DNA of 64,000 nucleotides from Flavobacteriaceae bacterium (GTDB lineage Bacteria; Bacteroidota; Bacteroidia; Flavobacteriales_C; GCA-002722245). The stretch spans positions 2,643-66,642 of the forward strand of contig CAXRIN010000083.1 of the NCBI GenBank assembly GCA_964230605.1. The letters are read 5' to 3'. The text below continues a report on this DNA, generated by a model with database tools. The DNA itself is not shown here.

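Novelty: non-covalent AspRS/GatCAB/tRNA transamidosome complexes are established, for example in Thermus thermophilus. I do not know of a described natural GatB-AspRS fusion.

Divergence: the GatB module differs at motifs I remember as near-invariant. It has [10 protein letters not shown] where I recall FDRKNYFYPD, and DYRFSQEPD where I recall DYRYFPEPD. This hints at a specialised paralogue rather than the housekeeping gatB.
How to check it: 1. Map raw reads or re-sequence across 50600-50800 to exclude a missed stop or frameshift.
2. Run an HMM scan of the 1113-aa protein. Expected hits are GatB_N, GatB_Yqey, tRNA_anti-codon OB, tRNA-synt_2 and GAD.
3. Run a domain-architecture search (InterPro/CDART) for GatB plus class II AspRS in one polypeptide, and record its taxonomic spread.
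4. Search the rest of this genome for a second aspS, a second gatB, asnS, glnS and asnA/asnB. This would show whether the fusion is the only route to Asn-tRNA or asparagine.
5. Inspect the anticodon-binding loop for discriminating versus non-discriminating AspRS signatures.
6. Predict the structure of GatC/GatA/fusion with tRNA(Asn) and compare it with the T. thermophilus transamidosome geometry.
7. Run in vitro aminoacylation and transamidation assays.
What would refute it: Resequencing shows a stop codon or frameshift in the 50636-50767 linker. HMM or structure searches fail to support either module. Proteomics shows two separate polypeptides. The novelty claim alone falls if this architecture is already widely annotated and characterised.
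Basis: partly seen in the sequence, partly recalled or inferred. Interest (0 to 1): 0.85.

Follow-up and report, generated by a model that had tools for sequence, protein, structure and literature searches.

The fused reading frame and its distribution

The minus strand of the window carries gatC (53661-53912, 83 aa), gatA (52231-53658, 475 aa), which starts 2 nt downstream of gatC, and, behind a 41-nt spacer, a gatB::aspS fusion gene (48848-52189) that is uninterrupted over 1113 codons from the ATG at 52189. An upstream TTG start would extend the reading frame to 1120 codons; homologues begin at the position of the ATG. A hairpin with a 13-bp stem and a T tail (48795-48825, minus strand) lies 3' of the fusion stop codon. 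All elements reported in the initial annotation were present where it had placed them, and the five Pfam domains it had predicted were matched in the expected order: GatB_N (residues 16-295, 329.6 bits), GatB_Yqey (residues 373-470, profile positions 45-145, 35.2 bits against a cut-off of 27), the OB anticodon-binding domain tRNA_anti-codon (residues 537-621), the class II core tRNA-synt_2 (residues 638-1081) and, inserted into this core between motifs 2 and 3, GAD (residues 831-928). Cut-offs were exceeded for the GatB models NF004012 (421.8 bits, cut-off 338) and TIGR00133 (349 bits, cut-off 314.8) as well as for the bacterial aspS models NF001750 (716.3 bits, cut-off 443) and TIGR00459 (655.5 bits, cut-off 373.85, residues 518-1108); all four were matched at full length. 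GatA and GatC were recognisable, with scores slightly under the NCBIfam equivalog cut-offs. The protein is not a member of the AspRS-GatC fusion family NF009460, for which it scored 473.7 bits (cut-off 1379): the alignment was confined to the AspRS part (profile positions 27-613 of 723), and GatC is encoded by a separate gene in the window.

The in-frame fusion is real. A protein search in NCBI, JGI, ENA and Logan assemblies, with some contigs larger than 3 Mb, yielded at least 120 full-length homologues of 1101-1123 aa with all five Pfam domains and 58-94 % identity. A scan of 185,579 genomes, one per species, for the family-specific peptides WDRKHY[EQ]Y and TDEGAREF returned 574 stretches, 527 of which encoded a relative. 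The best 80 of these 527 were fetched; 78 matched essentially the whole query and two ran off a contig end. Both motifs resided in a single stop-free segment in 84 of 85 loci (84 fetched loci and the window), the exception being a 5'-truncated contig. The conserved open junction in loci from independent assemblies excludes a missed stop codon, a frameshift or a chimeric assembly as origin of the fused frame. The nearest relative of the window fusion is encoded in a Flavobacteriales MAG (92 % identity), and proteins named in RefSeq as bifunctional GatB/AspS have the same five-domain order and are 58-60 % identical to the query across 98-100 % of its length. When a Polaribacter protein was used as seed, fusions were recovered from at least 25 named species or strains of this genus, many with complete genomes. 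Polaribacter sp. MED152 was not among the Polaribacter names in the matches listed, which were the best 120, all Polaribacter-like fusions of at least 89 % identity. Two Bacteroidota-type operons were located on contigs binned as Glaciecola sp. or Paraglaciecola sp. (Gammaproteobacteria): the fusion of one (JBLIBC010000031.1, locus L008) is 80 % identical to that of the window, that of the other (P0386) 90 % identical to the Polaribacter protein. Mis-binned contigs are the most likely explanation, rather than gene transfer.

The genome from which the window originates belongs to the Bacteroidota and has a GC content of about 34 %; the window encodes type IX secretion proteins. In Polaribacter (Flavobacteriales), Jiulongibacter (Cytophagales) and a Marinilabiliaceae MAG, the fusion is immediately preceded by gatC and gatA, each time with unrelated flanking genes, and this gene order was present in essentially all of the 84 related loci with upstream sequence. 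The conserved entity is the three-gene unit gatC-gatA-gatB::aspS and not its surroundings. No second gatB or aspS was present within 6-10 kb in the 84 loci, and a scan of 20 of the larger window ORFs revealed no second aspS or gatB and no asnS or asnB. Genes for tRNA(Asn) or tRNA(Asp) were not detected near the operon in tRNA scans of the window and 60 related loci, nor was a T-box or another Rfam family at the operon in the window, the related loci L001 and L005, the Aminipila locus L087 and the UGA=Gly locus L088.

Several features of the non-coding DNA were observed. A conserved (A/T)TTTGC element precedes the gatC start codon by about 35 nt in the window (53947-53954) and occurs at equivalent positions in four related loci (L005, L006, L008, L009); it is similar to the -7 promoter box of Bacteroidetes and likely the operon promoter. 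Tandem arrays of the heptamer AGTTCAA, with about 4.4 copies each, occupy the gatA-fusion spacer (52197-52227) and two sites upstream of gatC in opposite orientations (53985-54014, 54098-54128). They occur at no other place in the 64 kb, and all three lie within non-coding parts of the gat operon; the heptamer pattern gave 11 matches against 2.3 expected. The arrays create spurious TTG-started ORF extensions. A role as regulatory element was rejected, since they are absent from the closest relatives. One Arcticibacterium MAG has about 540 bp between gatA and the fusion (locus L020, 5458-6001); elsewhere the genes abut or overlap.

Conserved residues and the linker

The alignment of 121 family proteins revealed GatB residues invariant in all sequences: E20, H22, D87-R88-K89, E135-E136, E161, D203 and E221. 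The GatB structures of Aquifex, Thermotoga and Thermus have matching motifs in the alignment. The metal-binding and kinase/transamidase residues of the cradle domain are, in the S. aureus numbering, H12, E124, E150, K79, E10, D192 and E210; judged from the alignment, H22, E135/E136, E161, K89, E20, D203 and E221 of the fusion correspond to them. The AspRS module aligns end to end with the structures 6wom, 1eqr, 4o2d and 4wj3, and invariant in 121 of 121 proteins were R738 and R746 of motif 2, R1013 of motif 3 and also H1015. Conservation differed along the protein: between the window and a distant Flavobacteriaceae/Cytophagales group, identity was 71-72 % in the AspRS core with GAD, 58 % in the GatB cradle, 54 % in the OB domain, 44 % in the GatB helical/YqeY part and 14 % in the linker (residues 471-518). 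The GatB_Yqey match is weak in the window protein compared to 150 bits in the Aminipila fusion; this part is helical in an AlphaFold model with a pLDDT of 80-90.

At three near-universal segments, the AspRS modules have family-invariant swaps: TDEGARE for TPEGARD (flipping loop), LPQAPQQ for LPQSPQL and HNPFSMP for HHPFTSP (residues 690-696, 713-717 and 970-976; window about 50102-50122, 50039-50053 and 49262-49282). LPQAPQQ and HNPFSMP are common to the Aminipila and UGA=Gly fusions, too. Such swaps may mark a subclade of AspRS that is prone to association with GatB.

The linker is 41-53 residues long (median 45 in the 121 proteins), with a high content of E, K, S, T and A and few aromatic residues. 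The AlphaFold model, calculated from 25 sequences with a mean pLDDT of 65.8 and a poor AspRS core, is informative only on the linker and on GatB, not on the geometry of the tether; it gave the linker a pLDDT of 25-29 and no secondary structure. Structure comparison of the model with the PDB matched either AspRS chains or GatB chains, and no single chain spanning both was among the matches. The anatomy is that of two folded enzymes and a flexible tether of constrained length. The family alignment had no conserved methionine in or near the linker, so that a separately translated AspRS appears unlikely.

Related proteins outside the Bacteroidota

In a search of 1.84 billion cluster representatives with the GatB module as query, the whole Bacteroidota family fell into one cluster at 50 % identity. 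The nearest stand-alone GatB proteins were P0121 (42 % identity) and P0122 (40 %). P0121, from an organism reading UGA as glycine, is encoded in a gatC-gatA-gatB operon with a hairpin at its end (locus L085, 394-3573); it ends exactly where the linker of the fusions begins and already has the motif RKHYEYPD. Its presence in an unfused protein indicates that the deviant GatB motifs characterise the subfamily and did not result from the fusion. At the P0122 locus (L086, 1912-5169), an interval of 109 nt separates gatB from a downstream aspS, which is broken into two ORFs. The two loci may represent states before the fusion or after a fission.

Fusions were also detected in two other lineages. 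The protein of Aminipila (Clostridia; WP_331655381.1, 1090 aa) has the canonical motifs FDRKNYFYPD and DYRYFPDPD and is encoded in a gatC-gatA-gatB::aspS operon of the same order (DALZHA010000009.1, locus L087, 6226-11273). With 37 % identity in GatB and 41 % in AspRS, it is about as similar to the window protein as any bacterial homologue, thus it probably arose in an independent fusion. Its 90 % cluster also contains some RefSeq AspRS entries of 584 aa or 639 aa with start sites within the linker or within the YqeY tail; they derive from the same Aminipila ORF, so the gene calls are inconsistent. The second lineage (28 % GC) has a fusion of 1074 aa in loci L088 (2138-6586) and L089 (2046-6494). 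The fusion gene contains 45 in-frame TGA codons at positions of conserved or invariant glycines, an indication that UGA is read as glycine (code 25), and the lineage presumably belongs to the Gracilibacteria or Absconditabacteria. The linkers of the Aminipila and UGA=Gly fusions are similar in size to those of the Bacteroidota, with about 33-40 residues as judged by eye. The UGA=Gly fusion has the motifs SIRDHG, FTHNPFSMP and LPQAPQQ in common with the Bacteroidota family, therefore these two may be of common origin.

The upstream partner in the UGA=Gly lineage is an asparaginase/GatD-like gene and not gatA and gatC. Its product reached 142 bits with the GatD model and 164 bits with the type I asparaginase model, both below the cut-off. 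The operon may encode a GatD-plus-GatB-type amidotransferase in bacteria; if true, the GatD-like protein and the fusion would form a bacterial amidotransferase composition without previous description. Another unusual covalent arrangement of amidotransferase parts was present on Logan metagenome contigs: P0268 (817 aa) combines a canonical GatB (GatB_N and YqeY) with a C-terminal asparaginase-family (GatD-like) domain.

The initial annotation had presented the fusion as an undescribed architecture. This was overstated: NCBI already uses the name 'bifunctional amidotransferase subunit GatB/aspartate--tRNA ligase AspS', while JGI and some NCBI records have AspRS or GatB. No dedicated full-length NCBIfam model for GatB::AspRS was among the 25 families listed for the window protein. 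In the full-text literature, where few subscription journals are covered and absence is not proof, no paper was found that describes or tests a GatB-AspRS fusion. Annotators recognise the architecture, which is apparently uncharacterised.

tRNA recognition, asparagine supply and predicted function

AspRS forms Asp-tRNA, and GatCAB converts Asp-tRNA(Asn) into Asn-tRNA(Asn) with ammonia derived from glutamine. All four proteins of a transamidosome, AspRS, GatC, GatA and GatB, are encoded in one operon. The anticodon-binding domain of the 121 family proteins contains RDHG with an invariant H548. Mycobacterial AspRS entries described by their depositors as Asp/Asn ligases share this histidine; the discriminating enzyme of E. 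coli has leucine, and the Elizabethkingia enzyme has lysine. The second signature position is Asp or Glu in the family (D600), glycine in non-discriminating enzymes and lysine in E. coli. H548 presumably equals H31 and D600 the position of G83 in the P. aeruginosa AspRS, two residues that Bernard et al. reportedly implicated in tRNA(Asn) recognition in 2006. Inspection of the anticodon-binding loop for a non-discriminating signature, as the initial annotation had proposed, thus gave a suggestive but incomplete result, with the histidine invariant and the glycine replaced. The AspRS module is a candidate non-discriminating enzyme.

The deviant GatB motifs had led to the proposal of a specialised paralogue beside a housekeeping enzyme. 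A census of 547 genera lists for Polaribacter sp. MED152 one gatCAB, one aspS, one asnS and one glnS, and neither asnA nor asnB (PMC4206432, Table S1). With a single aspS and a single gatCAB in MED152, a specialised paralogue is probably the wrong reading, and the gene content makes it more likely that the fusion is the sole AspRS and the sole GatB. The census makes no mention of a GatB-AspRS fusion (PMC4206432). Fused proteins are labelled 'aspartyl-tRNA synthetase' by JGI, so the census could count the fused gene as aspS; a single fused gene would plausibly account for the one aspS as well as the gatB it lists. None of the other Flavobacteriaceae and Weeksellaceae identified by name in the census table has gatCAB; asnB is present in most of these, Capnocytophaga carries asnA, and Weeksella lacks both genes (PMC4206432).

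Where AsnRS and GlnRS are present and an asparagine synthetase is absent, GatCAB is not needed for tRNA charging as such. It has been argued to serve the tRNA-dependent biosynthesis of asparagine in such organisms, e.g., Thermus, Deinococcus, Bdellovibrio and Legionella (PMC4206432). Abundant marine Flavobacteriia such as Polaribacter would appear as asparagine auxotrophs in standard pathway maps, yet they probably make asparagine on tRNA; the fusion alters the predictions of asparagine prototrophy for common marine Flavobacteriia. Should the fusion be the sole AspRS, it would have to sort tRNAs: Asp-tRNA(Asn) would be retained and Asp-tRNA(Asp) released, the latter escaping amidation. Bacterial GatCAB requires the U1-A72 pair of tRNA(Asn) (PMC1635274), a rule that would let Asp-tRNA(Asp) escape. 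The tRNA(Asn) of MED152 has U1-A72 ('Y' in the census table, PMC4206432). Aspartylation of tRNA(Asn) is assayable in the E. coli trpA34 system (described in PMC4206432).

The best functional hypothesis for the fusion is a tethered transamidosome. Support for the initial interpretation is partial: its tethered complex stands as hypothesis, its undescribed architecture claims too much, and its specialised paralogue is probably wrong. The predicted working is that of the Asn-transamidosome, which differs in that its components are not covalently joined. The tether would hold the amidotransferase at all times next to AspRS, the source of the toxic mischarged intermediate, and, AspRS being a dimer, would also set a 2:2 assembly. 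At the junction, the tail of GatB is joined to the anticodon-binding domain of AspRS. Both domains contact the body of the same tRNA, which makes a hand-over plausible in which only the acceptor end moves. Such a hand-over can be likened to that of ErdS, a fungal AspRS-transferase fusion, for which a movement of the acceptor end only was recently shown (PMC13219428). Owing to the covalent link, co-localisation of GatB and AspRS is certain; channelling of Asp-tRNA(Asn) is a candidate property only.

A wider combination of these elements is possible, yet doubtful as a whole: the fusion as sole AspRS and obligate cis-channelling machine of multiple origins, with a GatD-like partner in the UGA=Gly lineage. 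tRNA(Asn) would be clamped between the tail of GatB and the anticodon domain of AspRS while its acceptor end swings from the synthetase to the amidotransferase site, and tRNA(Asp) would be let go for translation. Separate origins would be assumed in the Bacteroidota, the Clostridia (Aminipila) and the UGA=Gly candidate-phylum lineage.

Recurrent independent fusions represent 'Rosetta stone' support for a functional coupling of AspRS and GatB. Long-standing questions are how Asp-tRNA(Asn) is kept from the ribosome and whether transamidosomes channel their substrate. Known bacterial transamidosome complexes are transient and thus hard to study. A natural covalent version offers a test system with fixed stoichiometry, in which the linker can be cut for comparison with the intact protein.

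Two further ORFs of the window were conspicuous. An ORF of 1546 aa (8853-13493, minus strand) had no Pfam family at E <= 0.001. The second (733 aa; 28055-30256, plus strand) had no Pfam match either; the DNA around it is strongly purine-rich, with a GC skew of 0.43 and an AT skew of 0.47 over 28001-30000, and the many imperfect repeats of 21-63 nt in this ORF encode a low-complexity protein rich in E, K and A.
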